A DNA stretch of 62,748 bases from Tepidisphaeraceae bacterium (GCA_036794395.1 DAIRGS010000003.1:1-62748), one strand, 5' to 3'. Positions 9,998 through 40,569 are shown, counted from the first letter of the stretch. The notes: a model not told the origin generated them from the letters alone. Translations and numbers: made by a program.

Positions 9998-10026
9998 GAT
10001 AAGTGCTAATGAGCACAAAACTAAAG

Positions 10027-10047
10027 TACCCCCAAGGGGGGTTGAAC
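10027..10047. repeat. Degenerate copy of the tRNA-Glu 3' end (outer att remnant of element A)
   Basis: tacccccaaggggggttgaac versus the tRNA 3' end tacccccaaggggagtcgaac. The first 13 nt are identical and 19 of 21 match overall. Confidence 0.6.
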
Positions 10048-12168: not shown

Positions 12169-12367
12169 ACCCCTGACACCCATTGGCACGCCGCGCCTGC
12201 TGTTCACGCCCCGCGAAGCGGCGAAGGCGCTGAGCGTTTGCGAAAAGACACTTTGGAGCCTGAGCAAGCGCGGCGACCTGCCGGCGGTGCGGATCGGGCG
12301 GGCGGTGCGGTACGACGTGGCGGACCTGCGAGCCTTCATCGACGGGCAGAAGGGCGGTGCCCGATGA
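12158..12367 (+). CDS. Excisionase-family (AlpA/MerR-like) HTH DNA-binding protein
   Basis: LLFTPREAAKALSVCEKTLWSLSKRGDLPAVRIGRAVRYDVADLRAFID matches the excisionase-type HTH pattern. The stop overlaps the next ATG (ATGA). Confidence 0.8.
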   Translation: MSVEPLTPIGTPRLLFTPREAAKALSVCEKTLWSLSKRGDLPAVRIGRAVRYDVADLRAFIDGQKGGAR

Positions 12368-14445
12368 ACCGCGAGACGAATTGGCTGCGGGTGCGGAATG
12401 ATCGGCCCTGCCCGATCTGCCAGCACACCGACTGGTGCATGGTAGCGGCAGACGGATCGGCGGCGCTGTGCGCTCGCATCGAACAAGGCGCGGCGACGAA
12501 GACAAAGGGCGGGTGGGTACATCGGCTGACAGAATCGGCCGAGACGCAACCCAACAGAACGCGAAGTGTTGGGAAGGCGAAAACGTCCGCCCGGAAGGGA
12601 ATGACCACAAAAGCGTACCCAACTGCCGACGCTGCGATTGAAGCCGCTGGCCGGCAGGCCGGTGGTGATGCGGTTGCGCAATGGAGCTACCACGGCCGCG
12701 ACAGCACCGAAGCCCTGCGCGTGATCCGCTTCGCCCTGCCGAACGGCGACAAGCAATACCGGCCTATCCACCATGCGAAAGACGGCTGGCGGATCGCCGA
12801 TCCTTCCGGCCCGCTGCCGCTGTATCGGCTGGGCGACCTGCCGGTGACGGGCACGGTATGGGTGACAGAGGGCGAGAAAGCGGCGGACGCTGCCCACGGT
12901 ATCGGGCTGCCAGCTACCACGTCGGCGCACGGTTCGGGCGCTGCCGAGAAAACCGATTGGACGCCGCTGGCCGGGCGGATGGCGTGCATCTTGCCCGACG
13001 CCGATGAGCCGGGGCGGAAGTACGCGCAGGACGTGGCGCGGTTGCTGGCGAAGCTGGACCCGCCGGCCCGCGTGCGGATGGTGGAACTTCCGGGACTGCC
13101 GGACAAGGGTGACGTGGTGGAGTACATCGACGCCCGCGCCGGGCAACCGCCCGCCGCGATCCGCGCCGACGTGGAAGCCGTTGCGGCGAAAGTGCCGGAG
13201 TTGTCCGCCGGCGACGTGATCGGCGGGCCGGTGCTGGTGTGCCTGGCCGACGTGGAGGCGCGAGAGATTGATTGGTTGTGGCCGGGCCGCGTGGCACTGG
13301 GGCGCATCACGCTGCTGGTGGGCAGGCCCGGCGAGGGTAAATCATTCCTGACAACCGATATGGCTGCGCGGGTGACGACTGGCACGCCCTGGCCCGATGG
13401 AACGGATTGCCCCGCCGGATCGGTGATTCTCGTTTGTGCCGAAGACGACCCTGGCGACACCATCCGCCCGCGACTAGACGCACACCATGCCGACGTGCGG
13501 CGCGTTCACCTACTGTCGGCCGTTCGACGGATCGGCGCGGATGGTAAGCGGCATGACGTGATGTTCACTCTGGCCGACGTGGTGGCGCTTGAAGCGGCGT
13601 TGAAGACGCATCCCGATTGCAAGCTAATCGTGGTGGACCCCATCGGCAGTTTCCTTGGCGGCGACACCGATTCCCACCGCGACAACGAAGTGCGTAGCGT
13701 GCTTTCCCCGGTGGGCATGTTGGCAGAGAAGTACGGGCCGGCAGTGCTGGTTGTGGCGCATCGACGGAAGAGCGCGGGCAGCAACGCGGACGAAACCGCA
13801 CTGGGAAGCCGGGCGTTCACTGGCATTGCCCGAGCCGTCTGGCACCTGAGCCGCGATACCGAAAACAAGGCCCGCCGGCTGCTGTTGCCGGGCAAGAACA
13901 ACCTGGCACCGGAAGGCGACGGGCTGGCGTTCACGATTCACGGCGAACGGCCCGCCATCATTTGGGAACGCGATCCGGTGACGATGAGCGCGGATGACGC
14001 CTTGGCCGTTGAGAACGGCGGCGGTGGTGACGGGCCGGGAAGGCCGGCGGAAGAACGGGACAACGCGGCGGCATGGCTGGCGGCGGAACTGGCGGACCTG
14101 CAACCGCATCCCGTGGCGGACCTGCGGCGTGACGCAACGGCGGCCGGCATCGTCTGGCGAACGGTGCAACGGGCGGCCGTGACGCTACAGGTGATCCGCG
14201 AGCGGAGCGGTTTCGGGGGCGCGTTCATCTGGCGTCTTCCGAAACCCGGAACGCCCCTACCGGGTGACGCCCCGCCCATACGTGCCACAAGCCCGGAGAG
14301 TAGCAATTCTGGCACGAATGGCACGATTGACGAATCACGCGAAAAACACGGGTTTTCGTCGGCTGCGAGCGTGCCATTATCCCATACGTGCCACAATGAT
14401 TCACTTGGCACGAATGGCGATGGCAGAGAGCGGGGTGAGTTATGA
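12364..14445 (+). CDS. Primase-helicase: Zn-finger plus Toprim plus RecA-like (AAA_25/RepA-type) ATPase
   Basis: CPICQHTDWC...C zinc motif. Toprim motifs VWVTEGEKAADAA and ILPDADEPGRKYA. Walker A LLVGRPGEGKSF and Walker B-like VILVCAEDD. The start was chosen at the ATGA overlap; the track ORF begins at 12238 inside the previous gene. Confidence 0.8.
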   Translation: MNRETNWLRVRNDRPCPICQHTDWCMVAADGSAALCARIEQGAATKTKGGWVHRLTESAETQPNRTRSVGKAKTSARKGMTTKAYPTADAAIEAAGRQAGGDAVAQWSYHGRDSTEALRVIRFALPNGDKQYRPIHHAKDGWRIADPSGPLPLYRLGDLPVTGTVWVTEGEKAADAAHGIGLPATTSAHGSGAAEKTDWTPLAGRMACILPDADEPGRKYAQDVARLLAKLDPPARVRMVELPGLPDKGDVVEYIDARAGQPPAAIRADVEAVAAKVPELSAGDVIGGPVLVCLADVEAREIDWLWPGRVALGRITLLVGRPGEGKSFLTTDMAARVTTGTPWPDGTDCPAGSVILVCAEDDPGDTIRPRLDAHHADVRRVHLLSAVRRIGADGKRHDVMFTLADVVALEAALKTHPDCKLIVVDPIGSFLGGDTDSHRDNEVRSVLSPVGMLAEKYGPAVLVVAHRRKSAGSNADETALGSRAFTGIARAVWHLSRDTENKARRLLLPGKNNLAPEGDGLAFTIHGERPAIIWERDPVTMSADDALAVENGGGGDGPGRPAEERDNAAAWLAAELADLQPHPVADLRRDATAAGIVWRTVQRAAVTLQVIRERSGFGGAFIWRLPKPGTPLPGDAPPIRATSPESSNSGTNGTIDESREKHGFSSAASVPLSHTCHNDSLGTNGDGRERGEL

Positions 14446-16125: not shown

Positions 16126-17454
16126 ATGGCGACGATTGGCAATGACCCCAATGGCTACCGGCGGATTCTTTTCGTGGCGGGCGACAGCAGCCGCAAGACA
16201 ATCCGGCTGGGCAAGGTGACGATGAAACAGGCCGAAGCCTTCAAGGTGAAGGCCGAAGCCCTGATCGGCGCTGGCATCACCGGCAACATGGACGATGAAA
16301 CGTCCCGCTGGCTGGCGACGATTGACGACAAGATGCACGCCCGCTTGGCGGCGGCGGGGCTGGTAAAGGCGCGCACCGGCGGCCGGGCGGTGCTGGGGAC
16401 GTTCATCGACGCCTTCATTGCGAGCCGGCCCGGCATGAAGGAACACACGCGATTGAATTGGGTGCAAGTGCGCCAATGGCTGGTGAAGCATTTCGGCGAG
16501 AGCCGCGACATGCGGAGCATCGACCACGGCGACGCGCTGGACTGGCAGACGTTCATGGCAAAGGGCGGGCTGGGGGAGAACACGTTGCGCCGGCACATCG
16601 GCCGCGCCCGCCAGTTGTTCAAGGCGGCGATCCGCCGGGGGCTGGTGCGCGGCGTCAATCCGTTTGAAGGAATGGCCGCGACGGTGCGGGCCGACAAGGA
16701 ACGGCTGGTGTTTGTCACGCGGGACGCGATAGCAAAGGTGCTGGACGCCTGCCCCGACGCCCAATGGAAGCTGATGATTGCCCTGAGCCGCTACGGCGGG
16801 CTGCGCTGCCCGAGCGAACACATGATGTTGAAGTGGGGCGACGTGGATTGGGAACGTGGGCGCATCACGGTACGAAGCCCGAAGACAGAACACCATGAAG
16901 GCAAGGATTTGCGGATGGTGCCGCTGTTCCCCGAGCTGCGGCCGTACCTGTTGGAAGCCTTTGAACAAGCCGAGCCGGGGACGGAGTACGTCATTACCCG
17001 CTACCGGGACAAAAACGCCAACCTGCGGACGCACTTCGGCCGGATCGTCGCTAAGGCCGGGGTGAAGGCGTGGGCGAAGCCGTGGCAGAATCTTCGGTCA
17101 ACGCGGCAGACGGAGCTTGCCGAGACGTACCCGATTCACGTCGTCTGTGCGTGGATCGGCAATAGCGAAGCCGTGGCGCAGGAACACTACCTGCAAGTGA
17201 CCGATGCGCACTTTGCGGCTGCGATCCGCGAGCCGGTGCCTGCGACCGGGCAGACACCGGCAAGCCCCGCTAACACCGCGGCACAGAATCCGGCACAGTA
17301 CCCGGCGGAATCGAGCTTACCCGAGCGGGAAACGGCAGGGGCTGAAAAGCAAAATCGCCCGGCTTTACCGGGCGATTCTGCTAAGTACCTGTCAGTACGG
17401 GACTTGAATGTACCCACAAGGGGAGTCGAACCCCTGTTCATATGCGTTTTTTAG
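16126..17454 (+). CDS. Tyrosine recombinase / phage-type integrase (element A)
   Basis: Catalytic region ALSRYGGLRCPSEHMMLKWGDVDW and LRSTRQTELAETYPIHVVCAWIGNSEAVAQEHYLQV (R, H-x-x-R/W, Y). The last 15 codons read through the att copy at 17411-17437. Confidence 0.85.
   Translation: MATIGNDPNGYRRILFVAGDSSRKTIRLGKVTMKQAEAFKVKAEALIGAGITGNMDDETSRWLATIDDKMHARLAAAGLVKARTGGRAVLGTFIDAFIASRPGMKEHTRLNWVQVRQWLVKHFGESRDMRSIDHGDALDWQTFMAKGGLGENTLRRHIGRARQLFKAAIRRGLVRGVNPFEGMAATVRADKERLVFVTRDAIAKVLDACPDAQWKLMIALSRYGGLRCPSEHMMLKWGDVDWERGRITVRSPKTEHHEGKDLRMVPLFPELRPYLLEAFEQAEPGTEYVITRYRDKNANLRTHFGRIVAKAGVKAWAKPWQNLRSTRQTELAETYPIHVVCAWIGNSEAVAQEHYLQVTDAHFAAAIREPVPATGQTPASPANTAAQNPAQYPAESSLPERETAGAEKQNRPALPGDSAKYLSVRDLNVPTRGVEPLFICVF
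17411..17437. repeat. 27-bp direct repeat of the tRNA-Glu 3' end (shared att site between elements A and B)
   Basis: tacccacaaggggagtcgaacccctgt versus 40497-40523 tacccccaaggggagtcgaacccctgt: 26 of 27 identical. Confidence 0.85.
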
Positions 17455-17479
17455 CTAATAATACGGTTTTTTGTCACTC

Positions 17480-17510
17480 TAATTCGGTATTGTGTTGCTT
17501 AATTCGGTAT
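17480..17510 (+). promoter_or_regulatory. Two direct TAATTCGGTAT repeats (putative integrase/excisionase arm-type sites, left end of element B)
   Basis: taattcggtat occurs at 17480-17490 and 17500-17510, a 20-bp period. The same motif pair occurs at 40402-40432, and inverted at 17599-17630. Confidence 0.6.
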
Positions 17511-17531
17511 TCAAGCCTACCATCTCGGGAG

Positions 17532-19091
17532 ATGAAAAAAACCACCAAGGGGCATCAGCGTAGGTCGCCGAAGGGGGAAACGCCGCAAACGCGCCGCAAT
17601 ACCGAATTAGCGGAAATCAATACCGAATTAACGAACCAGGGCGCCACCGCTACTGCCGCGCTCGCCGACACTGCCGCCACCGACACCGCCCAGACCGAGT
17701 TCAAGGGCCGGGTGCGACGCCAGCCGCGCCGCGTTCGGCCGCACCCGAGCGGGGCGTGGACGATCTGCATCGGCAAAGCGCTCAACAAGCGCAAGACCAA
17801 GCTGCGTGCGAAGGACTGGTATTTCCCCAATACCACCGAGGCAGATGCGAACACCGAGGCCGGCCGCATCAATCAGCGGTGGGACTTCCTCTGTGCCCAC
17901 TGGGCTCGGCTCTACCGCGACCGACTGGAATTGCTCGGCTCGTCGTTCGCCGCGGTCCCCCACTGGCAACCCGAACTGACGATCCAGGAGCCGACCGAGG
18001 CCGAAATCTCCGAACTTCAAAATCAGCCGCCGACCGCGGAGGAAATTGCCGAAGCCTATGTCGATGCCACGTTGCGCGCAGTCTTCGGGCTCTACAAGCT
18101 CCAGCAGGAAATGGACGTGACGGTGGGGGAGAAGCAGAACGTGACCCGAGGCGCCCTGCTCAAAAACATCCGCAATGGGTTGCGGTTTTTCCCCGACCCC
18201 GTGAAAGTGACCGACATCACGGCCGATCTGGTGCAAAGGACCAAGGCGGCGATGCTCACCGCCGGGCTGGGACGGCGGACGGTCAAGAATTACTTGGGCG
18301 GCATCCGGTCTATGCTGCTGTGGTTTTACGATTCCGAGTACGGCCGGACTCATGAAAAGCCGCCTCGGTTCGATGCCGCCTTCGCCGTTCCTCATGCAAT
18401 CCGCACTGATATCAAGACCCACGGCGCGCCGGAGTTGAAGGCGATGCTGGGTGCCGCCACCGAACGCACGCGGCTGTTCGCGATGCTGGCCCTGAACTGC
18501 GGCATGTACCAGAGCGACATCGGTCGGCTGACGCTCGACGAGATCAACTTGAAAGAGGGCTACATCTTCTGGGATCGCGAGAAGGAGCCGCAGAATCCCT
18601 TCCGGGTGCGGCACGACCTGTGGCCCGAAACGCTGGCGCTCGTCGGCAAATTCATCCAGAAGCCTGTCGGCGAACCGCGCCTGTTTGCAGATTTTCGCAA
18701 GGGCAAAGCTGAACAGATCGACTGCTCAAAGCTGGCGTTCGTAGATCGAAACGGGCTGCCGCTGTATCGCGTTCGAGAAAATGGCGATTCCTACGACAAG
18801 ATCAGCGACGCGTGGAAAGACCTCAAGGAGAAGCACGAGACTGCCCCACGCTTCAAAGACATCCGCAAATCAACCAACCAGCGCATCTGCGAGTTGGTTG
18901 CCGGCCAGCTCGGCGGCGACGATCCGCACCGTCTTGAAGCCGTCGGCGAAATCTCCAAAGAGTTCCTTGCCCAGAAGACGCCGACTCTCTCCCGCCTCTA
19001 CCTTCAGAGCGGGATGAGCCTTTACGACCGGATGAATCGTTTCCTCCGGCTTGTTGGGGAAGAATTTCGCAGGGTTCGAGTCTTCGCTTAA
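17532..19091 (+). CDS. Tyrosine recombinase / integrase (element B); start uncertain
   Basis: C-terminal catalytic region LFAMLALNCGMYQSDIGRLTLDEINL, FKDIRKSTNQ and PTLSRLYLQ. The ATG at 17532 follows GGGAG. The N-terminal codons NTELAEINTEL are encoded by the inverted arm-type repeats, so a later start is possible. Confidence 0.75.
   Translation: MKKTTKGHQRRSPKGETPQTRRNTELAEINTELTNQGATATAALADTAATDTAQTEFKGRVRRQPRRVRPHPSGAWTICIGKALNKRKTKLRAKDWYFPNTTEADANTEAGRINQRWDFLCAHWARLYRDRLELLGSSFAAVPHWQPELTIQEPTEAEISELQNQPPTAEEIAEAYVDATLRAVFGLYKLQQEMDVTVGEKQNVTRGALLKNIRNGLRFFPDPVKVTDITADLVQRTKAAMLTAGLGRRTVKNYLGGIRSMLLWFYDSEYGRTHEKPPRFDAAFAVPHAIRTDIKTHGAPELKAMLGAATERTRLFAMLALNCGMYQSDIGRLTLDEINLKEGYIFWDREKEPQNPFRVRHDLWPETLALVGKFIQKPVGEPRLFADFRKGKAEQIDCSKLAFVDRNGLPLYRVRENGDSYDKISDAWKDLKEKHETAPRFKDIRKSTNQRICELVAGQLGGDDPHRLEAVGEISKEFLAQKTPTLSRLYLQSGMSLYDRMNRFLRLVGEEFRRVRVFA
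17599..17630 (-). promoter_or_regulatory. Two inverted copies of the TAATTCGGTAT motif inside the 5' part of the integrase B ORF
   Basis: ataccgaatta occurs at 17599-17609 and 17620-17630, a 21-bp period. Confidence 0.55.
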
Positions 19092-19369
19092 ATCCCGACG
19101 CCTTCAGCGGTTGGTGCCCACTTCCGCCTTCGGGACGCCCCAGCGTGATCGTTGATGAGCATGAAAGGCATTATTACCAACTCCGGCAGCCGGCAAGAAC
19201 GCGCGCAGCTGCGCGGTGACGCGGCTAAGATGGGGAGTCAGACGCCGTTCTCGGCCGAAGAATCGGCCAGTGGGACACCCCGGCGCGGCCGACAAGTTCA
19301 GTTGAGAACGGATGCCGCTTACCGTACAATTCACTAATTCATGGTTCCGGACCCGTGACAGGAGACCCG

Positions 19370-19615
19370 ATGGCAGAAGCAGATAAACATCCGTCGCACT
19401 TTGAGATACACGTGGATGGCGTTCGAATCGAAGTGACCGAGCAGAATCTGACTGGTGCTCAGATCAAGGCAAAAGCGGGCAAAGACCCGCAGTACCAACT
19501 CTTTCTTGAAGAGAAGGGAAACGCTCCGGATCAACTGATCGCGGACAACCAAACGGTGAAGATTCAGAACGGCCTGCATTTCTACACGGTTCCACCCGCT
19601 ACCTTCGGAGCATGA
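19370..19615 (+). CDS. Ubiquitin-like beta-grasp protein, single multiubiquitin-type domain (81 aa)
   Basis: FEIHVDGVRIEVTEQNLTGAQIKAKAGKDPQYQLFLEEKGNAPDQLIADNQTVKIQNGLHFYTVPPATFGA fits the Multi_ubiq pattern (I.V.G......TG.qI...AG......L......g...i.d...V.i..G..F...P). GGAG lies 5 nt upstream of the ATG at 19370. The stop overlaps the next ATG. Confidence 0.75.
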   Translation: MAEADKHPSHFEIHVDGVRIEVTEQNLTGAQIKAKAGKDPQYQLFLEEKGNAPDQLIADNQTVKIQNGLHFYTVPPATFGA

Positions 19616-20004
19616 TGGGTCTCGTCGAAGAACATTTTGAGTCGCTCAAGACAAGGGATCGCTTCCACGAGGCGACGTTAATCGCCGTACCAAACGGCAC
19701 CTATGTCGTAAGGATTCCGCGCTTCCCGTTGCCGCAGGGGTGGAATCGCTCTGAGACCACTCTGTACTTCGTGATACCCGTTGGGTATCCGGTGGCAAAA
19801 CCCGATACGTTCTGGACCGAACCAGGTCTTGCCCTTGCGAGCGGAGCACAACCGCAAGCTGCGAACCCGGGTGGCAATCACTTGGAGGGGTTGCCGTCGG
19901 GCCTGCTTTGGTTTTCCTGGCATGCAGGCACGTGGAACCCAAATCGGGATAACCTACATAGCTACGTCGGTCTAATCGGAAAGCGCTTTCAGGAATTGCG
20001 ATGA
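19612..20004 (+). CDS. Prokaryotic E2/UBC-like protein (Prok-E2_E-like), no cysteine in the whole protein
   Basis: IPVGYPVAKPDTFWTEPGL ... LLWFSWHAGTWNPNRDNL resembles the bacterial E2 family that accompanies multiubiquitin and JAB-E1. The 130-aa sequence contains zero Cys. ATGA coupling occurs at both ends. Confidence 0.7.
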   Translation: MMGLVEEHFESLKTRDRFHEATLIAVPNGTYVVRIPRFPLPQGWNRSETTLYFVIPVGYPVAKPDTFWTEPGLALASGAQPQAANPGGNHLEGLPSGLLWFSWHAGTWNPNRDNLHSYVGLIGKRFQELR

Positions 20005-21359
20005 CATCCTATGTCTTTCCAGCCGACGAATTGGTCAAGTTGCGACAGTCCTTACTGAGCGAAGGACCGAAAGAAGCGGCTGCCGTCATCCTCGCGGGCC
20101 GCGCCGCGAACAGTGGCAGGACCGCTTTACTTGTGCGCGAATGTTTTCCTGTCCCGAGCGTCGGGTACGCGGTACAAGAATCTCTCCGACTCACGATAAG
20201 ACCTGAATTTTTAGCTCCGCTGTTGAAACGTAGCCGAATAGAAGGCTGGAGCATCATCTTTGCCCATACGCATCCCTTTTGCACGGATGATGTTCGATTT
20301 TCTCCCACCGATGATTCCGGTGAAAGTATTCTGATGCCCTCGGTGTTTAGCCGAGCGCCATCGCGGCCACATGCAAGTTTAGTGCTGGGAAGCCGCGGGT
20401 TCGACGCGCGGGTGTGGACCGCACCATCGTGGCCGCCTGAATCGGTAGACACGATCGTTGAATCAGGGAGTGAACTGCGAGTACACGCCCGTAGGCCCTC
20501 CGAAGCAGTTCCCCCCCCCGATGAGTTTGATCGTAGCGTGCGTGCCTTTGGATCAGCGGGGCAAGCCCTGCTTAAACGGCTTACGGTGGGAATAGTCGGA
20601 CTCGGAGGTATAGGGTCAATCGTTGCTGAAGAACTTGCGCACCTTGGCGTTGGGCGCATGATCCTCCTCGATCCTGATGCGGTTGAGCCCACGAACCTCA
20701 ATCGGCTTATTGGTGCGAACGCAATGAGTGTCGGTCGTCCGAAAGTCGATATCGCGGCGGAACACGTTAGCCGTATTCGACCGTCTATCCAATCAAATGC
20801 CGTAAATGGCAGTATTCTATCGGGTCATGACGGAAAGGCGCTTCTCGAAGCTGACTTGCTATTTGGTTGTACCGACTCACACGGAAGCCGTGCGGTACTC
20901 AACCAAATTGCATATCAATACATGATTCCCACAATCGATCTTGGGATCATCATCAACGTTGTGGACTTCAAAGTTCGGAGCGTCACGGGGCGCGTTCAGA
21001 TGCTCGCTCCGGGCCTTCCATGTCTTGTATGTCAGAACTTACTCAATCCTGAACAGGTGCGTCGGGATTTTCTGTCTCCGAAGGAGCGCGCGCTCGACCC
21101 ATATATTGTGGGTCTTCCTCGACCCGAGCCTCAACCATCTGTCGTTTCCCTAAATGGTACGATGGCATCGTTGGGGGTAACGATGATGCTGGCCGCTGTC
21201 ACCGGCCTGCCGTCTCCAGCGCGTCATCAGGTCTTCATTGGGGAGCGCGGTATTGTCCGAGCTGTCGCGTCCTCGCCGCTTGAAGATTGTGTCGTCTGCT
21301 CTCGCAGTGGTGCGTTGGGCCGTGGCGATCTGTGGCCGATGATGTGGAGGCCGGGGTGA
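20001..21359 (+). CDS. JAB/JAMM deubiquitinase-like domain fused to ThiF/MoeB-type E1 adenylyltransferase
   Basis: N-terminal JAMM motif AHTHPFCTDDVRFSPTDD (HxH...SxxD). E1 Rossmann motif VGLGGIGSIVAEELAHLGVGRMILLDPDAVEPTNLNRL. CxxC pairs PCLVCQN and CVVCSRS. Confidence 0.85.
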   Translation: MTSYVFPADELVKLRQSLLSEGPKEAAAVILAGRAANSGRTALLVRECFPVPSVGYAVQESLRLTIRPEFLAPLLKRSRIEGWSIIFAHTHPFCTDDVRFSPTDDSGESILMPSVFSRAPSRPHASLVLGSRGFDARVWTAPSWPPESVDTIVESGSELRVHARRPSEAVPPPDEFDRSVRAFGSAGQALLKRLTVGIVGLGGIGSIVAEELAHLGVGRMILLDPDAVEPTNLNRLIGANAMSVGRPKVDIAAEHVSRIRPSIQSNAVNGSILSGHDGKALLEADLLFGCTDSHGSRAVLNQIAYQYMIPTIDLGIIINVVDFKVRSVTGRVQMLAPGLPCLVCQNLLNPEQVRRDFLSPKERALDPYIVGLPRPEPQPSVVSLNGTMASLGVTMMLAAVTGLPSPARHQVFIGERGIVRAVASSPLEDCVVCSRSGALGRGDLWPMMWRPG

Positions 21360-22936
21360 ATGTCCCCAAGCGCCCAAATGTGCTATGGATCGGTGACGAG
21401 ATTGCCGATGGGTTGCGGTCTGCCGTGGAGGCACTGGGCCTCACTGTTATATTGACGAACGTTGAGGGGGCCGAGCCGGAGCGTCAGAATCCACATGCTG
21501 TGGTAATGCCATTCGACGGAGTCACAGAGGAGAAATTTCGTGGGCGGCTTGCGCATCTACTCATTCGATCACTGGACAGTGGCGCCCTTGTTACGGTCTT
21601 GGCGCAACCACACACCGATTACGAAGTTGCATCCAAATTGGCAATGGAGCGAGTCCAGGTTGAAGACGCACACGCCACCGATCTTCGTGATGTATACCCA
21701 AACTTTCATGTAATTCATCCTGATGTACGGGAATTGGCCCGGCTACTGCGCGATCACAATCCGGGACTTGCGGCAGACCAGCACCTTGTGCTTCAAGATC
21801 ACGAGGGAAGTACAACCCCGGCGGAAAAGTTGCTCCTCCGAAGGGCGTTCAGTGGATTCGACAGAATCGTATTGAAGCCACTTAGCGGGGGCCGCTCACC
21901 CGATAGCAAGGTCTGGAGAGTCGAGGCCCATGCTGGAGAACGATGTTGCGAGCCTTTCGTCGCCAAATGCGCGCGGCGTCTTACATTGGTCGAAGAGCTG
22001 AACACGTGGCGAGAACACGTGTTGAATTATATTCCATTTCCTTTCCGCGCGCCACCCGTTCCGGAACGTTTTGTGACGGGAGCAACCAGGGCGCTACTAG
22101 TCTCGATGCTTGCAAGTCGAGCACATCGTTTTGACGAATATGTTGCAACCGTCAAGGGTCCAGAACTGGCGATCGCTGCGCTTTTTGATGGTGCGTTGCG
22201 AAATTGGCGGCGCCAATCCCGGCCAGTTCGGCTCCAGCTGGGGCAAGTTTATACTTGGGAAGCCGATCAAGCAGAGCGGACAAGGGAGGCTGATCGTCGG
22301 TCTGGAAGACTCTCCCGAGCTGTGTTGCCGAGTCGTAGTTCTCTGACAGATGCATTTGAGCTTGCGAAGAAACGACAGTCGGACGTGGCAAACCCAGACG
22401 TGCTCTGGGCAATGCTCGCAGCGCTGCCGGAACTTGAGTACCACGAATGTCGTATGCATGGGGATCTGAACCCGCGGAATCTCTTCGTACGCTGGAATGG
22501 GGTCGATATCATCCTGATCGATTTTTCTCATGCTGGCGATTGGGCGCCGATGTCTCGTGATCCCTCACGGCTGGAGGTGAGCACGGCATTCGATGTGTTT
22601 GTCAAAATCAACGGGGAGAAACAGTTCTTAAGTGACGACATTCTCAACCGCTTTTACCGACCGCCACTTCTGCCACCGCGTATTCCGGCTAGTGAGGACG
22701 GGCGATTAGAGGCCGTTCGACAACTTAGGTTGCTCGCCGGTGGCGAGGGAATCAAGAACGCGGAGTATGCGACAACCACCGCCTGTCACCTATTGAAATA
22801 TGCGCGTGCGGGCAGCCGAACGGCAAGCGAAGTTTCGGAAGGTGAAGCGCGACGACTCCGTGGATTGAGCTATCTCCTCTCCGCAAAACTTATTCAATGG
22901 CTGCGTGAAGGGAATAATGCGAGGGGGGGTGACTGA
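21356..22936 (+). CDS. Kinase-like (APH/protein-kinase-like fold) protein with uncharacterised ~170-aa N-terminal domain
   Basis: Kinase-lobe motifs: LKPLSGGRSPDSKVWRV (Gly-rich), FVAKC (Lys), HGDLNPRNLFV (catalytic loop) and ILIDFSHAG (DFG-equivalent). A GTG start at 21356 overlaps the E1 stop (GTGA). The track ORF starts at 21287 inside the E1 gene. Confidence 0.7.
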   Translation: MNVPKRPNVLWIGDEIADGLRSAVEALGLTVILTNVEGAEPERQNPHAVVMPFDGVTEEKFRGRLAHLLIRSLDSGALVTVLAQPHTDYEVASKLAMERVQVEDAHATDLRDVYPNFHVIHPDVRELARLLRDHNPGLAADQHLVLQDHEGSTTPAEKLLLRRAFSGFDRIVLKPLSGGRSPDSKVWRVEAHAGERCCEPFVAKCARRLTLVEELNTWREHVLNYIPFPFRAPPVPERFVTGATRALLVSMLASRAHRFDEYVATVKGPELAIAALFDGALRNWRRQSRPVRLQLGQVYTWEADQAERTREADRRSGRLSRAVLPSRSSLTDAFELAKKRQSDVANPDVLWAMLAALPELEYHECRMHGDLNPRNLFVRWNGVDIILIDFSHAGDWAPMSRDPSRLEVSTAFDVFVKINGEKQFLSDDILNRFYRPPLLPPRIPASEDGRLEAVRQLRLLAGGEGIKNAEYATTTACHLLKYARAGSRTASEVSEGEARRLRGLSYLLSAKLIQWLREGNNARGGD

Positions 22937-22939
22937 ATC

Positions 22940-23314
22940 ATGTACCTCTATCGCGACGTGATTTACACGCAGATCGTGAGAGTCGCCGATCAATCCACGG
23001 CGGCGCAGTTCCTCAAACCGGGGACATTGGTGCTCGTGATGCCGGGCGAGAAGCCGAAATGGTTAAAATTCATTTGTCCATGTGGCTGTGGCGAGGTCGT
23101 TTCGGTCAACTTAATGCCTGGGCAAAGTCGAGCGTGGAGAATTACCTTAGAGCCTAAGCGGGGCCTCTCGTTATGGCCGTCGGTGCACTTGCAAGCGGGA
23201 TGTAAAAGTCATTTCACACTGTTCAACAATACGGCGCGACTCCTCTATCGCAAGCACCCGCAGGCAGATGAAGGGGGTGCGGAGACAAATGACCGCGGGG
23301 GCTGGATTGCATAA
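22940..23314 (+). CDS. Small Cys-rich zinc-ribbon protein (CPCGCG ... GCKSHF; DUF6527-like)
   Basis: WLKFICPCGCGEVVSVNLMPG...WPSVHLQAGCKSHFTLFNN. From memory this matches the small family that trails multiubiquitin/E2/ThiF operons. It begins 3 nt after the kinase-like stop. Confidence 0.6.
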   Translation: MYLYRDVIYTQIVRVADQSTAAQFLKPGTLVLVMPGEKPKWLKFICPCGCGEVVSVNLMPGQSRAWRITLEPKRGLSLWPSVHLQAGCKSHFTLFNNTARLLYRKHPQADEGGAETNDRGGWIA

Positions 23315-23322
23315 CTTTCCGC

Positions 23323-23655
23323 TCACCTCGATGAACCGTCCGCAGCCGTACCCGGTATCATGCTAATCTTCGCTTGGAACAGATCCACTGCGTGCTTCCG
23401 CTCTTCCGGCGTAAGCCCCGCCGCATCCATCCGCCGGTTCCAGTTGTTTCGCAAGTCCTCCAGGCTCTGGAGGCCGTCAAACCCGACGGCGCCGGCCTTG
23501 CGGACGTACACGAGGTTCTCGGGTTCGCTGACGGTAATCTCCGCGATTTCGGGATCGGTGAACGACTCGCCCAAGACGTACCCCACAATGGCCGCCATGA
23601 ACGGCGACATACCGGGAAACCTTGAAGGCCGAAGTTTTGTGACAAGAGCATCCAT
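23323..23655 (-). CDS. Hypothetical protein (110 aa), last gene of the minus-strand operon
   Basis: ATG at 23655; the track ORF uses a TTG at 23676. It lies 9-30 nt downstream of the helicase stop, and its own stop lies 8 bp from the stop of the convergent gene (23314). Confidence 0.5.
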   Translation of the reverse strand: MDALVTKLRPSRFPGMSPFMAAIVGYVLGESFTDPEIAEITVSEPENLVYVRKAGAVGFDGLQSLEDLRNNWNRRMDAAGLTPEERKHAVDLFQAKISMIPGTAADGSSR

Positions 23656-23685
23656 CGATTGACGATCTCTGCCCAATGCGAATTC

Positions 23686-26600
23686 TCAGGTTAGAAGGTC
23701 CGACAGTCCACGAATATGACTCACCGTTGAATCTGCCGCACCATCGGCGACGGAGACGATCACACGAAATAGCGGTCCATCGGGCAACAGAAGCTGATGG
23801 CTTTCAAAGTGGTCATCAAAGATATCGGGGTCGGCGGTGACTCGCGCCAAACCCGGTTCGCCCGGCAACGAGAGGCTAAACGTCCGAGGTTCCAACTCCT
23901 TACATACCGTGCCGGGCGGCAGCATCTCGGATTGCAACAGCAATTGACCGATCTGGGCGGGTGTGTACGGCGGTGGCGAAAACGCCGGAGGCAGAAGATC
24001 CGCATCGCTCAGCTCATCAATGTCAAACGTTGACGCCTCGGCGGCGCCCACGAGTATCTCGACGTTCCGCACGGCTTCGTGCCGTCCCTTTTCGCGGTCT
24101 TCTCTGCGTCGCAGCGCGGCCGCTTCGAATTCCTTGGGTAGCTGCGCGAGAATCGGCTGCAATTTTCCGATCACGCCGTTAAAAAGCCCGATCCGCGCGC
24201 TGAGCGCAAAATAAACATCCGCCTCCACGGTATCGGCGTACGCGAGATTGATGACGCGCACCTCTGGAAACCGCTGTCCGATGCGGTCAATGCGGCCGAT
24301 TCGCTGCTCGACCTTCATTGGGTTCCACGGCAGATCGTAATTCACGACCACGCCACAGCTTTGTAAGTTCAGTCCCTCACCAGCGGCGTCGGTGCATACG
24401 AGAACCTTTACAGTGCCGTCCTTGAGCATTCGCTTGATCTGCTCCTTCGTCCGTCCGGTCCATCGACCGGCCGCATCGCGAATCTCGCCGCCGCGCCCGC
24501 TGAAACAGCCGACCGATACCTCTAGCTGGTCTGCAAGGAACTCGCGCAGAAAGTCCATCGTGTCGGTGTATTGCGTGAAGACGATCGCCGAGTCGTACCC
24601 GTCGGCGAACGCGCTCTGAAGCTGGTCGCGCACTTCGCGGGCCTTGGTGTCGGTCCCGAGCTTTGCGATCCCCTTCAGCAGATCCTGAATCGAACTCTCC
24701 TCTTCCACGCCTAGCGCCTTGGCCTGAAGTTCATCCGCCTCGTCATTAGCGAGGACTTCCAACGCCCGGTCGTCCTGGGGGAGATCCTCCTCCAGCCGAT
24801 CTTCATCCCCGCGGCCCGGCTCGAAGCCCTTGATCCGGGCCAGTCGCGATTCCAACGTCTTTCGGAGCGAATAAAAGCTGCTGGCCAATCGGCGACGATA
24901 AATCGTCATCACGAACCCGACCGCAGTTTTTTTGTCCGGCGACGCGGATTGATACGTGGTGCTGATGTAATCCTCCACCGCGTCGTACAGCTCGCGCTCC
25001 GCCGTGCTAAGAACGACAGCTTTGTCCAGCACCTTCCGGTCCGCGATGGGCGAATCAAGCAGCCCCTTTTTGAAATACCGCCGAAGAAGGTTGCGCGTGT
25101 GCCGCGACATCCGGTGGTAGATCGGGCTGCACGATCGGAGAAGCGCGATCAGGGCTTGGCGTTGCTTTGTGCTGAGCCGCTTAATTGGGATCGTCGTGTT
25201 CGGCTCCCGCGCGGCGGCCAACACTTTGTTGACATCAATCTTCGATAGATGCATCGCGTCGCTGATTCGATGGACCAGCGTGTCCGGCGCGGCCCCGAAG
25301 TCGCGTTCGGTGGCCTGAAACAGCACTGCGGCGCGGTAAAGGTCCTCGTCGCCCGGATTGCCCCCGAGCATCTCAAAGTAATTCGTGAAGACGCCCGGCG
25401 ACCATTCATCGGGCATGCCCAGAAGGCTGAGAAGGTCCCACATCTCGACCGGATGGACTTGCATCGGCGTCGCGGTGAGCAGCAACAAGGATTTCGCCTT
25501 GTGTTTGATCGAATGCATCAACCGCAAGAGGCGGTTTGGACCGCCCTCCTGCGGCGTTCCCGGCGCGCTTCGGCGGGCATGATGTGCCTCGTCGAGCACA
25601 AATAAATCCCAGTCTTCGGCTTCGATCAGCTCCTGTTGCCGCTCCCGGCGCCGCATCAGGTGGCTGCTGACCAGCACGATGGGCTCTTTCGTCCATTCGC
25701 CTCGGCTGACCGGCCGTTCAAGTGGCCCCGTTCGGTGATGGTACTCCGGCCAGCACAGTGACTTCCCCGTGTAGATCGGCACCAGCAGATTGAACTTCTC
25801 ATAAAGCTCCGATTGCCACTGCTTCAGCAGCCCCTTGGGCGCCATGATCAGCACCCGCTTGGCCAGCTCCGCGATCCACGTGTGCCGGATAATCAAGCCG
25901 GCCTCGATCGTCTTGCCGAGCCCCACTTCGTCCGCGATCAGCAGACGTAGGGGCCAGGTGTCGATCATCCGCTTGTAGGCCCGAAGCTGATGCGGCCATG
26001 GTTTCACAGCGCTGGTGACCACCGCCACCATCGCGCCGTCGGGCCGCTTGGGCGCATGTTTAATGAAGGACCAGATCAGACGTCGTCGCTCATCGATCGG
26101 CATTGGCGGCGGCGCATCGTCCGCCGGGGCGTCGCCATTTTCTTCATTGGTGGTCTTCTTGTCCTTCGCCTTCGGCGGCTTTACGAACGTGTCGTCGATC
26201 GGAAGAAACTCCAGAAGCTTCTCTTTGAGCGCCTCCGGGAAGTCGAATACTTTGGCGCTTTTCGCTTTCCCCGACCAGAGCTTGGCAAACTCGCCCTCGG
26301 TTTTCCTGACTTTCGCGGCGTCCCACTCACCTCGCCACGAGCAGCTCACGTCGAACGATTCGCAATTGTTCAGCCACCCCGCCGGCGTCTCGTTGATCGA
26401 TCCCTTGAACACCAGCTTGTCGCCGGCATCGTCCACGATGACGCCGGCCTTGGCGTGATACAAACCCAACCCAGCTCGCATCTCGCCGTGCTCATCCAGC
26501 GGCACGGCAATTTTCACGTCCAGAAACCCGTGCGCGATCATCCACGCCAGATAGCCGATGTTTCGTCGCGCTTGAGGGGATTCGTGAGTAAGTGGAATGC

Positions 26601-26907
26601 GGTTGATCGACGATCGCGTCACCGCCTCGCGAACGTCGTACCCCTTCTTGATGTCTTCCACATCCTGTTCGCTCAGGGTGCAACCGACGAGCAACTGCAT
26701 CCGCCCGCCGCGGGCGATCAGTGCGTCCAGCCCGCGTGCCGCCAGCGCCAGCACGTCGCCCGAAAAATACCCCGTTGCCCGCAGGTACAGGCGCGCCCGC
26801 GACAGCGCCGGGACGAAGAACATCGCAACCAGATCGCCGTCCTCGTGGCTGTACCCGACGTCCCAGTCCCGGTCTCGCAGCGATGATGTCCCCGTCCCCT
26901 CGTTCAC
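23686..26907 (-). CDS. PLD-like nuclease domain fused to SNF2-family helicase
   Basis: N-terminal HKD-like motif [12 protein letters not shown]...[8 protein letters not shown]. SNF2 motifs [41 protein letters not shown] and [22 protein letters not shown]. A GTG start at 26907 overlaps the methylase stop (GTGA). The track ORF's extra 164 N-terminal codons overlap the methylase gene. Confidence 0.85.
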   Translation of the reverse strand: [1073 protein letters not shown]

Positions 26908-29900
26908 GGCTTCCCCGCCTCCGGCTGGTCGAACAGCATCCATTCCTTGGATTGCGGCACCTCGCCAGAAAACATGAGCTTCCGTAGCTTCTCCATCGCC
27001 TCCGCGTCCGCCGCCGCGCCGGCAAGCGCGCCCTTGCCGCTCACCATCCGTGGGGTTGGCAGCACCTGTAGCGCGGCCTCCATCGCCATCAAGAAGGCGC
27101 TGTCCTTGTGCAGTTCGGATCGTTCGATTAGTTCCTTGGCCACACCCACATTCCGTTCCCGCACCGCCTGGGCGACCTGGTGAAGGGCGTCGAGCCGGCA
27201 AATACCGTTGAGCGATCCAATGGCGCTCTTCTTGGCCCGCTGGCCGGAATCCCACACGATGACGTCGCCGCCCTTGAGTTCCAGCACCTTGTTGCGCAAC
27301 TGCTCGTCGAAATTGACGCCGACCACCCGCGCCAGCTTCAGTGCTTCGTCTGCCGGAAACTGCGGGCTTTTGAAAGCGTCCCACGCCAGCACGAACCACT
27401 CGGTTACCGGATCGAGGCTCGCCTTTCGATGGACCGTGGTCAACTCAAGAAGACGCCACTGCTTTACCGCCTTTCGAGCGGCCATGAGAGCGTCTTCAGG
27501 TCGCACCGCATACGGGTCCCACTCCTCATCCTCCACGAGCTTCAACTGCGCGCCCTTGACCGGCAGTGGCCTCTGGTTCGCCCGGCCGCGCTTCATGGGC
27601 CAATTCTTGCTGAACACTTCAAGCGCCGGTCCGAAGCACGACAAATACAGGTCCACACCGCTCATGCCGATGTCGTGAAATAGCCCTACTTTTTGAAGCA
27701 CAATCTCCGTTACCTTTGGCTCGACGTCTTCCCAGTATGTGGTTTCGGCATTCGCGGCCGGCGTCTGGCGCGGACGGCAGACCAGGAAGATCGTACTCTT
27801 CGCGGCGTTCTTATCCTTGATGTGCAGGCTCCCCTCCGCTTCAGTCTGGATCGGCCAGCTTGCCGTGATTACAAATCCCGCGTCCACCAGACCCTTGGCA
27901 AGCGCGTCCCACGCGCCGGTGGCCTTGTGGGTGAACATGAGGGTCATGATGCCCTCGGGCTTCAGTACCCGACGGGCCTCGGTAAAGATCGCCTGCATCC
28001 GCTCCTGGTAGTCGCGGCTGGCGCGTTTCTTCGCCCCGCCGCTTCCTTTGACCTTGGAAAAATCCTTGAACTTCGCCGGGTTCGCGACGGCCTCGCGGTC
28101 CTTGTCGGTCAACTGGTCGGCGAACTGTTCGGGGAACAGCAGCCCCGCAGTCCGCTTCAGCCACACGTAAAAGAAGTCCGCCAACTCCGCGTACATCACA
28201 TTGTCGTAGTAGGGAGGATCGAGTACGACCGCGTCGATGCTGGCGTCGTCGAGTTGCGTAACATTGTCGCCAGAACCTCGAATTATCGTAATTTGGGAGG
28301 TGCCATCTGTCTCCGCCGACGAGCGACGAAAATCGAGGGTAAGGCCGTCGCCGGACAACTCGGTACCACTAAGCTGAATAAGCTCCGCCAAAGCTTTCCC
28401 AGTCTGCTTGATCGCCCAGTCATAGCCCAAACCTGCAACACATGGAGCCATTTCCGCATAGCTCCAAAGGAACGCGAAATCGTGCCGATCAAAGACTCCG
28501 GCGACCACTTCACGATTGGCGTGCCAACGGACTGATCTCGCGTTGTAATTCAGGAGTTTGTCCAATCCAATCGCCAGGTAGGACATCGCCGCTTTGTCGA
28601 TCTCGTTGAGTTTCTTCGATGTTGCGCATTCGGCGACAAGCTCGTGGAAGACTTCCACGCTCGTCCCGTGGCCGAGCAACTGGCGAGGTGAAAACATGTC
28701 GCGCCACTTCAACATGCCGACCTTGCGAGGCTTGTCTGTGCCGCTGCCGGTGTCATCGCCGGTCTTGTGCCCGTGCGGAATCTCCTCGTCCGGCACGATA
28801 TTTCTCGCCAGCCATTCTGGCATCTTGGCATCCAGCGCCTTTTTCACCTGATCGGCGATGTCGTCTTCGGGGCGTGGGGCGCGGAAGCCGCGGGTCTTCT
28901 TGATCTTGGGTTTACCGTTCTTGGCGTGACCGATCACTTTGCGTTCGGTGTAGACGACGGCGTAGAGCTGCTCGCCCATGGCACCTGCAATGGCTTGAGC
29001 CTGAATCTCCGTGTTGTTGAAGACCCGACGACAGTCGGGAAACGGGCAGAGGCCGTCGCCACCTTTGACGGTACCAGCAGATTGGTGGGACGTATCGTCG
29101 ACAATTTCAAACTTGCAGACGCGGTCTTCCGGGTTACCCGTCTGCGGCACCACCCGCACGCCAACGCCCTTGTTGTTCAACCTCCAATTCGGCGACAGCG
29201 GCACAAGCCCGTTGCAATAGGGGCAGTGAACGGTGCGGGCCCACAGATAAGTCGCATCCTCACGTTCGGGGTTCGGATCGCTTGGAAAGAATGGCTGCAT
29301 CCGCTCCTTCATCACCGTCAGCCACTTCCCAGCGAGCACTTTGTACCGTTGCAGCAACTCAGGACCAAAACGTGCGGGGAATTCGACCGTTGCCTTCAGG
29401 ATGAGCCAAGCGACGGGGTTGAGGTCATTGGCGTAGGTATCACAGCCGAGCCGCATCGCTTCGAATGGGATTGACCCACCACCTGCGGTGCTATCGAGGA
29501 CACGGGGAGAAACACCCTGCCCCCCGAGGGTGCGAACATAATCGCGATCTGCTTCGGTTGGGTTGTAGCCAAATGCTCGGTCATATCCATAAGGGTTTGT
29601 AACCCGAACGCCGGTCCGTATTGCCTCTTGTATTAAGACCCTTGCTTTCGCTGGGTCGCCGTGGATGCCAAGGGCGTGGAGGAATTTCTTGTGATCGGCG
29701 TCGGCGGGAAGAAGGGACGCCAACACCGCGGCCCGGCTGGCGACGAGCGGACGACGCGCCCACCACACGTGCAGCCGGTTCGGCGCCGGGAACGGCGTCA
29801 TCGGCGTCCGCTCGCGCAGCGACTCGATTCCAATCTCCACGATGGGCAACCACTCCTCGATCAGCCGGCGCGTTGAACCAACGGCGGGCTTGCGGCTGAT

Positions 29901-29921
29901 GTCGGCGGCGGCATTGGTCAT
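26904..29921 (-). CDS. DUF1156-type DNA methyltransferase (DPPY motif, Zn-ribbon insert)
   Basis: N-terminal NRLHVWWARRPLVASRA (DUF1156 signature). SAM motif VLDSTAGGGSIPFEAMRLG. Catalytic VLDPPYYDNVMYAELADFFYVW. CPYCNG...CPFPDC zinc ribbon. The ATG at 29921 is preceded by GGAAGGAG. Confidence 0.85.
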   Translation of the reverse strand: MTNAAADISRKPAVGSTRRLIEEWLPIVEIGIESLRERTPMTPFPAPNRLHVWWARRPLVASRAAVLASLLPADADHKKFLHALGIHGDPAKARVLIQEAIRTGVRVTNPYGYDRAFGYNPTEADRDYVRTLGGQGVSPRVLDSTAGGGSIPFEAMRLGCDTYANDLNPVAWLILKATVEFPARFGPELLQRYKVLAGKWLTVMKERMQPFFPSDPNPEREDATYLWARTVHCPYCNGLVPLSPNWRLNNKGVGVRVVPQTGNPEDRVCKFEIVDDTSHQSAGTVKGGDGLCPFPDCRRVFNNTEIQAQAIAGAMGEQLYAVVYTERKVIGHAKNGKPKIKKTRGFRAPRPEDDIADQVKKALDAKMPEWLARNIVPDEEIPHGHKTGDDTGSGTDKPRKVGMLKWRDMFSPRQLLGHGTSVEVFHELVAECATSKKLNEIDKAAMSYLAIGLDKLLNYNARSVRWHANREVVAGVFDRHDFAFLWSYAEMAPCVAGLGYDWAIKQTGKALAELIQLSGTELSGDGLTLDFRRSSAETDGTSQITIIRGSGDNVTQLDDASIDAVVLDPPYYDNVMYAELADFFYVWLKRTAGLLFPEQFADQLTDKDREAVANPAKFKDFSKVKGSGGAKKRASRDYQERMQAIFTEARRVLKPEGIMTLMFTHKATGAWDALAKGLVDAGFVITASWPIQTEAEGSLHIKDKNAAKSTIFLVCRPRQTPAANAETTYWEDVEPKVTEIVLQKVGLFHDIGMSGVDLYLSCFGPALEVFSKNWPMKRGRANQRPLPVKGAQLKLVEDEEWDPYAVRPEDALMAARKAVKQWRLLELTTVHRKASLDPVTEWFVLAWDAFKSPQFPADEALKLARVVGVNFDEQLRNKVLELKGGDVIVWDSGQRAKKSAIGSLNGICRLDALHQVAQAVRERNVGVAKELIERSELHKDSAFLMAMEAALQVLPTPRMVSGKGALAGAAADAEAMEKLRKLMFSGEVPQSKEWMLFDQPEAGKP

Positions 29922-29991
29922 GGTCACGAACTCCTTCCCAGGAAATGCATCTTCCTTCTGGGCTGGCGGAAAGCAAAGTGTTCGCATTCGG

Positions 29992-31982: not shown

Positions 31983-31983
31983 G

Positions 31984-40489: not shown

Positions 40490-40496
40490 TATTCAG

Positions 40497-40569
40497 TACC
40501 CCCAAGGGGAGTCGAACCCCTGTCCTCTGGCTGAGAACCAGATATCCTAGGCCACTAGACGATGGGGGC
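40497..40569 (-). tRNA. tRNA-Glu (anticodon CTC), 73 nt, CCA not encoded
   Basis: Manual cloverleaf of GCCCCCATCGTCTAGTGGCCTAGGATATCTGGTTCTCAGCCAGAGGACAGGGGTTCGACTCCCCTTGGGGGTA. The acceptor stem is 7 bp, the anticodon stem is TCTGG/CCAGA with loop TTCTCAG, and the T arm is AGGGG-TTCGACT-CCCCT. Confidence 0.92.

Follow-up and report, generated by a model that had tools for sequence, protein, structure and literature searches.

A putative Type I Bub operon with a conserved, kinase-like fifth gene in a tRNA-integrated island of a Tepidisphaeraceae bacterium

We analysed the complete 62,748-bp contig DAIRGS010000003.1 (hereafter the window) of the Tepidisphaeraceae (Planctomycetota) metagenome-assembled genome GCA_036794395.1, focusing on five co-directional genes at 19370–23314. 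Comparison with solved proteins makes it very probable that the locus is an operon of the Type I Bub (bacterial ubiquitination-like) pathway, formerly 6E.1/DUF6527, in the split form with separate BubA and BubB. The fifth gene, here called K, codes for a kinase-like protein and occupies a fixed slot between bubCD and bubE in related operons. The four core genes are already known; a Bub sub-family with a fifth, kinase gene is apparently undescribed. Our preferred explanation, to which we give a probability of roughly 0.5 as a whole, is a Bub operon in which K would serve as the regulated output enzyme. Bub, characterised only recently, is a bacterial relative of ubiquitination with an unusual oxyester chemistry, and a conserved, predicted active kinase within an oxyester cascade of this kind is unexpected.

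Organization of the operon and identity of its Bub core

The five open reading frames (ORFs), A, B, CD, K and E, all lie on the + strand:

19370..19615, + strand: bubA, 81 aa; single beta-grasp ubiquitin-like protein (Ubl); Pfam Multi_ubiq, 4.6e-12
19612..20004, + strand: bubB, 130 aa, no Cys; E2-like; Pfam Prok-E2_E, 8.8e-14
20001..21359, + strand: bubCD, 452 aa; JAB/JAMM–ThiF-type E1 fusion; Pfam ThiF, 1.5e-36
21356..22936, + strand: K (fifth gene), 526 aa; Pfam TCAD9, 4.2e-11, and APH, 1.8e-5
22940..23314, + strand: bubE, 124 aa; Ser-His protease with a Zn finger; Pfam DUF6527 (PF20137), 5.1e-16

Successive ORFs are joined by ATGA at A/B (19612–15) and at B/CD (20001–04), by GTGA at CD/K (21356–59) and by a 3-nt gap at K/E. 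BubA and BubB are thus encoded by separate genes overlapping by ATGA and not as one BubAB pre-protein. A Shine-Dalgarno sequence, AGGAG, precedes bubA at 19360–64; a second, GGAGG, is located at 21346–50, 5 nt ahead of the GTG start of K, which overlaps the bubCD stop. The longest possible K ORF would begin at TTG 21287. These junctions had been quoted in the original prediction, a model's reading of this DNA that preceded our analysis, together with motifs that read here HTH..SPTD (JAMM), GLGGIGS, NLNR, CLVC, CVVC, HGDLNPRN, IDFS and CPCGCG; all were present, and the length of K, given there as 527 aa, came to 526 aa from the GTG start. Because the same five-gene order was found again in ~34 independent loci, the arrangement is far beyond chance.

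The 6E/DUF6527 neighbourhood, which had been taken for a computational prediction, is now a named pathway, Bub, that has been characterised biochemically and structurally (Ye, Gong, Chambers & Corbett 2024, bioRxiv 10.1101/2024.11.21.623953; PDB 9EA4, 9EA5, 9EAE and 9EAV). In that study Bub was found to proceed through oxyester intermediates, formed on a Tyr in the crossover loop of E1 and on a Ser of the Cys-less E2 that is aided by His and Asp, and BubE was identified as a protease of the Ser-His type that has a C4 zinc finger. The main text presents BubA and BubB as one fusion protein; Table S1 holds ~31 Type I operons with separate Ubl and E2. Residue-level comparison found the published Bub catalytic residues in full in the window proteins, including the Tyr and the Ser required for oxyester chemistry, which the locus may use.

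The Ubl, E2, JAB-E1 and kinase-like assignments made at the outset were upheld by Pfam profile search and by the Citrobacter BubCD and BubB relatives. For BubCD, the best solved relative was Citrobacter BubCD (9ea4, E=1.2e-40), aligned over residues 14–398 and both domains. The match to Pfam Prok-JAB was weak (0.047), and the JAB domain was confirmed by this full-length alignment. The JAB part (~20031–20417) contains Glu25, His89, His91, Ser101 and Asp104, and the E1 part (~20529–21218) contains Arg235, the crossover-loop Tyr368 and the Zn-binding Cys341/344/430/433. BubB, whose best PDB match was Citrobacter BubB (9eae, 1.2e-4), carries Asp65 and Ser102-Trp-His104, aligning with Citrobacter D299 and S333/H335. 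The protein had been called a Cys-less E2-like one; the absence of Cys is real, and the E2 of this family works via a Ser oxyester (Ye et al. 2024). Similarly, the 'zinc-ribbon protein' does have a Zn finger, its full identity being BubE, the DUF6527 Ser-His protease: Cys46/48/50/88, Ser81 and His91 correspond to C57/59/61/99, S92 and H102 of Citrobacter BubE.

These features were kept in 16 loci of the same five-gene kind (K-type loci). The E, HxH, S and D of the JAB domain and the Arg and Tyr of E1 were retained in 15–16 of the 16 loci, S-x-H of BubB in 16/16 and its PDxFW in 15/16. The BubE motifs were slightly less uniform (PS[VI] in 16/16, CPxGCG in 15/16 and GCx[ST]HF in 13/16). BubA of the window ends in ...YTVPPATFGA, with a conserved Gly80 followed by one extra residue, Ala81, and Gly80 is the predicted C-terminus of the mature protein. 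The K-type tail follows the pattern (F/Y)Y(T/A)(V/I)PPAT(F/M)G with 0–7 variable residues behind it; the Gly was kept in all 16 loci and the exact PPAT(F/M)G core in 13. Variable residues after the Gly fit the expectation for a Ubl tail that is trimmed by the JAB domain. At five of the 16 loci (L005, L009, L015, L024 and L027) BubA stops right at the conserved Gly. The JAB active site is intact across the set (E in 15/16, the other residues in 16/16), and since this includes loci where BubA already ends at Gly, the domain probably also deconjugates, a role beyond processing of the pro-Ubl.

The E1 domain also matches ThiF and MoeB models, which could point to a sulfur-carrier or cofactor system, that is, an adenylation pathway of the ThiS/MoaD-ThiF type. 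All these matches, however, fell far below the curated cut-offs, the best solved relative is BubCD over both domains, and the locus encodes an E2-like protein, a JAB domain and a DUF6527 protease that carry Bub catalytic residues. No sulfurtransferase or biosynthetic genes were found nearby in the window, and we regard a sulfur-carrier system as effectively refuted.

Upstream of the operon we detected one promoter-like sequence, ~40 nt 5′ of bubA:

19302..19330, + strand: promoter-like site, TTGAGA-17-TACAAT, 10/12

It is the sole sigma-70-like match in 18900–23800, an interval in which 2.2 such matches are expected by chance, and the planctomycete consensus may differ; the position of the site alone is suggestive.

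Linkage and co-divergence of K with the Bub genes

A word-indexed search for K homologues returned 41 proteins, and an exhaustive profile search returned 3,757 representatives, of which 517 reached E<=1e-30; the best 150 profile matches were nearly all full length. The picture of a tiny family given by the 41 proteins was rejected as a sensitivity limit of the word-indexed search. Gene context was collected from ten homologue look-ups reaching 23–30 % identity, a species-genome scan, a metagenome scan and annotated plasmids, and the loci were scored with hidden Markov models (HMMs) built from eight operons. Among the resulting 34 distinct K proteins at 48 loci, BubCD was encoded directly upstream of K in 27/27 testable cases and BubE directly downstream in 27/28, while the complete A, B and CD set preceded K in 25/26. 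Linkage of K to the Ubl, E2, E1 and DUF6527 genes is conserved and not accidental, and the chance insertion for which the original prediction had left room is not supported. Pairwise identity of K tracked that of BubCD (r=0.86) and BubB (r=0.81), with K diverging faster (mean pairwise identity 27 % vs 45 %).

K could still be an unrelated passenger, such as a resistance-type phosphotransferase inserted by chance, as its bare RefSeq/NCBI name, 'phosphotransferase', and the existence of canonical Bub operons without K would allow. Against this, K holds the same slot and orientation at the 27/27 and 27/28 testable loci, down to 23–30 % identity and in five phyla, it co-diverges with its neighbours, and its start overlaps the bubCD stop. 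The passenger explanation is effectively refuted, with a probability close to nil. Taken together with the residue conservation described below, K is very probably an integral, catalytically active component of the operon.

K-type operons were found in Planctomycetota (Tepidisphaerales and Pirellulales), Verrucomicrobiota, Acidobacteriota, Alphaproteobacteria and Deinococcota. Among cultured strains, the operon is plasmid-borne in Mesorhizobium sp. 131-2-5, Deinococcus sp. AB2017081, the Bradyrhizobium guangxiense group and Bradyrhizobium sp. 62B and chromosomal in Mesorhizobium argentiipisi; in these strains RefSeq labels the five genes multiubiquitin, E2-UBC, ThiF, phosphotransferase and DUF6527. 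Mesorhizobium, Deinococcus and Bradyrhizobium thus offer plasmid and chromosomal sources that are genetically tractable. TCAD9 kinases at a greater distance from K (local HMM E>=1e-29) sit outside Bub operons. Searched viral contigs contained no relative, and a fold search of BFVD returned generic kinases only.

The K-type and the canonical Type I Bub operons have much in common: a Multi_ubiq Ubl, a Cys-less E2, a JAB-E1 fusion and a DUF6527 protease in both, linkage to a tRNA-associated mobile element, and, in relatives, CapH/CapP. They differ in that the K-type has a kinase gene fixed between bubCD and bubE and a Ubl that is always a single beta-grasp with the tail PPAT(F/M)G, compared to ..TTEG in the canonical type. 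Their BubCD proteins also fall into separate identity tiers. On plasmids, the upper tier, 41–43 % identical to BubCD of the window, comprised 13 records, 11 with a K match, and the lower tier was at <=34 %, with K absent from all four members inspected.

Several K-type operons have a canonical Type I Bub operon (BubAB, BubCD, BubE) as neighbour: L002 (991–3792), L005 (9318–11861), L040/L041 (8406–11026) and L048 (558–2739), possibly also L013 (7884–8960) and L047 (8276–9046). K-type and adjoining canonical operons sometimes have one CapH/CapP-like pair in common, and the two systems may cooperate or share parts. Apparent 'orphan' BubAB-BubCD pairs beside K-type operons, seemingly without BubE, proved to be a gene-calling artefact, as BubE was detected by HMM. 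An apparent K-BubE fusion in the metagenomic locus L042 (2714–4741) was likewise rejected: the K C-terminus diverges before the junction and BubE keeps its Met, so that the single frame more likely reflects a frameshift near the K C-terminus or an assembly error than a true fusion.

Fold and predicted activity of K

The AlphaFold2 model of K computed with the family alignment reached a predicted local distance difference test score (pLDDT) of 92.8 and a predicted template-modelling score (pTM) of 0.90. It consists of an N-terminal five-fold beta-alpha domain (residues ~8–133; ~21377–21754) and a kinase domain (~145–523; ~21788–22924). The catalytic set of a kinase is complete (beta3 Lys, alphaC Glu, HxDxxxxN and the Asp equivalent to that of DFG), and its residues were essentially invariant in 168 relatives: K204, H368, N375 and D389 were kept in 168/168, D370 and D402 in 167/168 and E214 in 159/168, and the family-specific R163, F165 and R458 in 167–168 of the 168. 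Because of this invariance K is very likely an active phosphotransferase and not a pseudokinase. By sequence alone, PDB matches were marginal (Bud32, RIO and APH). The Pfam APH score was 25.1 bits (cut-off 23.2), and the TCAD9 match, 43.1 bits at a cut-off of 40, was marginal and local, covering profile positions 277–346 of 429 only. In Foldseek, the kinase domain matched choline kinase, maltokinase, APH(2'')/APH(3'), NahK and fructosamine-3-kinase, and less closely PknB.

The N-terminal domain, modelled alone, had a pLDDT of 90.9. It had been called unrecognisable, which remains true of its sequence in that there is no homology to receivers; Foldseek nevertheless gave weak flavodoxin/CheY-like fold matches, with TadZ at TM 0.66–0.70. 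A true receiver was rejected on three grounds: the acceptor Asp column is not conserved, the hhalign probability is 0.2 % and the fold matches are weak. For the same reasons we speak of the modelled domain only as having a receiver-like fold, and the analogy to a 'pseudo-receiver' would be architectural only. A word-indexed profile search for this domain joined to other effectors retrieved one fragment of K itself.

The closest relatives of K outside Bub operons were Chloroflexota proteins combining Response_reg with TCAD9 (L016, 5479–7149; L017, 4765–6483; L021, 4792–6492), which score 92–120 bits against TCAD9. In the flanks of two of these loci, L016 and L017, a GAF-domain histidine kinase is encoded just upstream, and LuxR-type response regulators follow downstream in L017. 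Judged by its domains, the Chloroflexota protein looks like a receiver-controlled APH-like kinase, an unusual two-component output domain, and we found no description of this arrangement in the literature searched. It differs from K, whose N-domain is not recognisable as a receiver.

Proposed role of K and alternative explanations

Residue homology to the Citrobacter proteins suggests how the core of the operon would work. The JAB domain of BubCD would trim the one-residue tail of BubA and expose Gly80, which the E1 domain would adenylate, BubA then being held as an oxyester on Tyr368. From there BubA would move to Ser102 of BubB and on to target lysines, and BubE (Ser81/His91), probably with the JAB domain, would strip it off again. 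We propose that K is an ATP-dependent phosphotransferase that would be switched by conjugation and deconjugation of BubA via its non-phosphorylatable, receiver-like N-domain. The conjugation substrate would be K itself or a K-bound partner, and under infection or stress K would transfer phosphate to a molecule of the host or the phage.

On the narrower choice between output and upstream regulator, we tentatively place K on the output side, and three observations favour this. First, the receiver-kinase relatives have the kinase as the output of an N-terminal regulatory domain. Second, an APH-like kinase predicted to be active has been listed among the effector domains of conflict systems, with low-molecular-weight substrates suggested (Kaur, Burroughs, Iyer & Aravind 2020, eLife e52696); Pfam TCAD9 (PF19974) presumably represents this APH-like kinase domain. 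Third, there is precedent in Type II CBASS (antiphage signalling system based on cyclic oligonucleotides), Pycsar and MBL operons, where the extra enzyme of the operon is the one under conjugation control (Ye et al. 2024).

Several findings weigh against the proposal. Canonical Bub conjugates without K, and no Bub operon conferred phage protection in the hands of Ye et al. (2024; bioRxiv 10.1101/2024.11.21.623953). The window contains no CapH, CapP or CapW regulator. One member of the K-type clade, L029 (4959–6709) on the Roseomonas mucosa AD1 plasmid NZ_CP025190, is K-less, and the K-type operon of L040/L041 has no BubE of its own. Within K, the closest fold matches are small-molecule kinases, so that its substrate may not be a protein, the N-domain shows no homology to the receiver domains of the Chloroflexota relatives (hhalign probability 0.2 %), and no Lys is conserved in this domain across the family alignment, leaving no obvious fixed acceptor site. 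In L029, the BubCD gene encodes a protein 43 % identical to that of the window and N-terminally truncated; it is followed directly by BubE and flanked by IS21 and IS6, and the locus represents either an operon in decay or a clade member that lacks K.

The main rival, to which we give a somewhat lower probability, is the opposite direction of control, in which K would act upstream as a regulator and phosphorylate a Bub component or a conjugation target (phospho-priming). The candidate sites would be the Ubl, in a PINK1-like manner, Ser102 of BubB, Tyr368 of E1 and Ser81 of BubE. This direction has chemical appeal, since the nucleophiles of Bub are hydroxyls of Ser and Tyr and thus open to direct capping by a kinase. 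Moreover, K sits between bubCD and bubE in translational coupling, its co-evolution is tightest with BubCD and BubB (r=0.86 and 0.81), its catalytic residues are invariant, and a conserved tail, PPAT(F/M)G, is peculiar to BubA of K-type operons. However, K-type operons are not alone in having Thr at position −2 of the BubA tail, the fold of K is nearest to small-molecule kinases, and the relatives with true receiver domains point to the kinase as output. We examined this Thr as a K-specific phospho-site and rejected it, since it also occupies this position in three of the four canonical tails (..TTEG) that we compared. To our knowledge, there is also no bacterial precedent for a kinase regulating a Ubl conjugation machinery, which counts against a regulator. 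The most direct form of such control, a phospho-gate on the oxyester cascade in which the Ser of E2, the Tyr of E1 or the Ser of BubE would be capped by K, or the Ubl itself phosphorylated, is improbable in our estimate; if true, it would be the first prokaryotic Ubl switch controlled by phosphorylation, with a logic that thioester systems could not use.

A further alternative sees in K a kinase for small molecules, akin to aminoglycoside, choline or sugar kinases, that acts on a metabolite, a signal or an antibiotic, with Bub co-regulated or loosely cooperating. The top Foldseek matches (choline kinase, maltokinase, APH, NahK and fructosamine-3-kinase) argue for it, as do GGRSxxxxVWR, HGDLNxRN, IDFS and a short segment before Asp402 in K. 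We take these motifs and this segment to fit the APH/choline-kinase pattern. The low-molecular-weight substrates suggested for this kinase type (Kaur et al. 2020) point the same way. On the other hand, the TM-scores were modest (0.4–0.5) and Ser/Thr protein kinases were matched too, and mere co-regulation would not fix K in the slot between bubCD and bubE in five phyla with co-divergence. We give this explanation little weight and retain regulated output as the preferred role of K.

Comparison with known systems

The kinase-like gene had been noted as lying outside the canonical four-gene layout, and it is indeed absent from published Bub descriptions, its linkage being conserved all the same. 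The word 'kinase' occurs 0 times in two Bub papers of the Corbett laboratory and in the supplements of the first, and no kinase figures in the 6e neighbourhood as described in 2006. Table S1 of Ye et al. (2024) contains a single Type I entry, that of Bradyrhizobium tropiciagri, in which one gene separates E1 from DUF6527; the entry carries no comment. No kinase-bearing Bub operon was described in the literature searched, which did not include Ye et al. in its final published form. When the five proteins were submitted to PADLOC, generic CBASS E1-E2 models matched BubCD at residues ~130–312 (the adenylation core) only, and A, B, K and E matched no model of PADLOC or NCBIfam. The K-type sub-family thus escapes the Bub catalogues and the defence-finder models (PADLOC 2.0, NCBIfam) now in use.

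Type II CBASS, Pycsar and 6A-MBL resemble the K-type operon in pairing a bacterial E1/E2/peptidase operon with an additional enzyme. In Type II CBASS, Cap2 is a Cys-dependent E2-E1 fusion, Cap3 is a JAB protein and the CD-NTase itself is conjugated. In contrast, the K-type operon has a separate Ubl, residues of the oxyester type and a kinase instead of a nucleotide cyclase, with no CD-NTase. The Bil system also differs, its E1 being organized as IAD-AAD-CYS, its E2 containing Cys and its JAB being separate, compared to one adenylation domain fused to JAB and a Cys-less E2 here. The TCAD9 ternary systems share with K the same branch of the kinase fold and the HGDLNxRN and IDF motifs; unlike them, the K neighbourhoods examined, all of them Bub operons, contained no vWA-MoxR, STAND or GTPase partner.

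A kinase has been tied genetically to Bub operons before, in that CapK-CapS regulate their transcription (EMBO J 2026, PMC13373217). We rejected K as a CapK: that kinase has an HTH-STAS-GHKL architecture and is encoded, along with CapS, upstream of many Bub operons. K is protein-kinase-like, its gene lies within the operon, and genes for CapS, STAS or wHTH proteins are absent here.

Cross-talk between kinases and ubiquitin is familiar from eukaryotes, where PINK1 phosphorylates ubiquitin and Parkin and where phosphodegrons operate. The likeness of K to PINK1-type cross-talk is conceptual only, as homology stops at the kinase superfamily. If kinase-Ubl coupling were true of the K-type operon, it would amount to bacterial cross-talk of phosphorylation and ubiquitination, a theme so far held to be typically eukaryotic. 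A fixed kinase, predicted to be catalytically intact, gives the question of Bub function an enzymatic activity and a phospho-readout, and offers a candidate conjugation substrate or regulator for Bub.

Genomic island and neighbouring genes

The original prediction had placed the operon in a tRNA-integrated island, and partial repeats of the tRNA-Glu 3′ end at 17410–17439 and 10026–10047 bear this out:

40496..40569, − strand: tRNA-Glu(CTC), by ARAGORN; sole tRNA in the window; integration target, right border
17410..17439, no strand assigned: att-like repeat of the tRNA-Glu 3′ end, 28/30 identical; left border of the ~23-kb island
10026..10047, same orientation as the tRNA: second partial repeat of the tRNA-Glu 3′ end, 20/22 identical
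17442..19091, + strand: tyrosine-recombinase-like integrase, directly 5′ of the operon; weak Pfam Phage_integrase match, 7.2e-4

A search with a 29-nt tRNA-end pattern at <=3 mismatches found nothing outside the tRNA, and shorter seeds gave both partial copies. With the intact gene counted, the tRNA-Glu 3′ end is thus found three times in the same orientation, which indicates two tandem integrations. The assignment of 17442–19091 as an integrase is supported by its adjoining the att repeat.

The inner island (17.44–40.49 kb) bears the Bub operon and, convergent to it on the − strand at 23686–35043, a complete Hma defence system. Its genes and other features of the inner island are:

23686–27399, − strand: HmaA, PLD and SNF2 helicase
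26904–30029, − strand: HmaB, DUF1156 methylase
31984–35043, − strand: HmaC, DUF499 ATPase
35171–37144, − strand: large serine recombinase
37340–37954, − strand: Mu Gam-like
38543–40138, − strand: AAA_25/KaiC-like ATPase

CapH/CapP-like genes flank the K-type operon in L001, L002, L005 and L006, and CBASS, RES-Xre and HEPN genes occur near K-type operons on plasmids. A biological role of the operon in anti-phage or stress defence is somewhat favoured by our analysis, on the strength of the tRNA island, the adjoining Hma system and CapH/CapP in relatives.

Further, unassigned ORFs were observed within or near the Hma span, at 30438–31391 and 23323–23676. In the outer island (10.05–17.41 kb), the GC content was 0.63–0.67, an AAA_25 protein is encoded at 12238–14445, and the ORF of a second integrase, at 16126–17454, extends into the att-like repeat. 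Outside the island, beyond the tRNA, asd is located at 40885–41886, followed by a gene for a Uma2-family endonuclease at 41936–42538.

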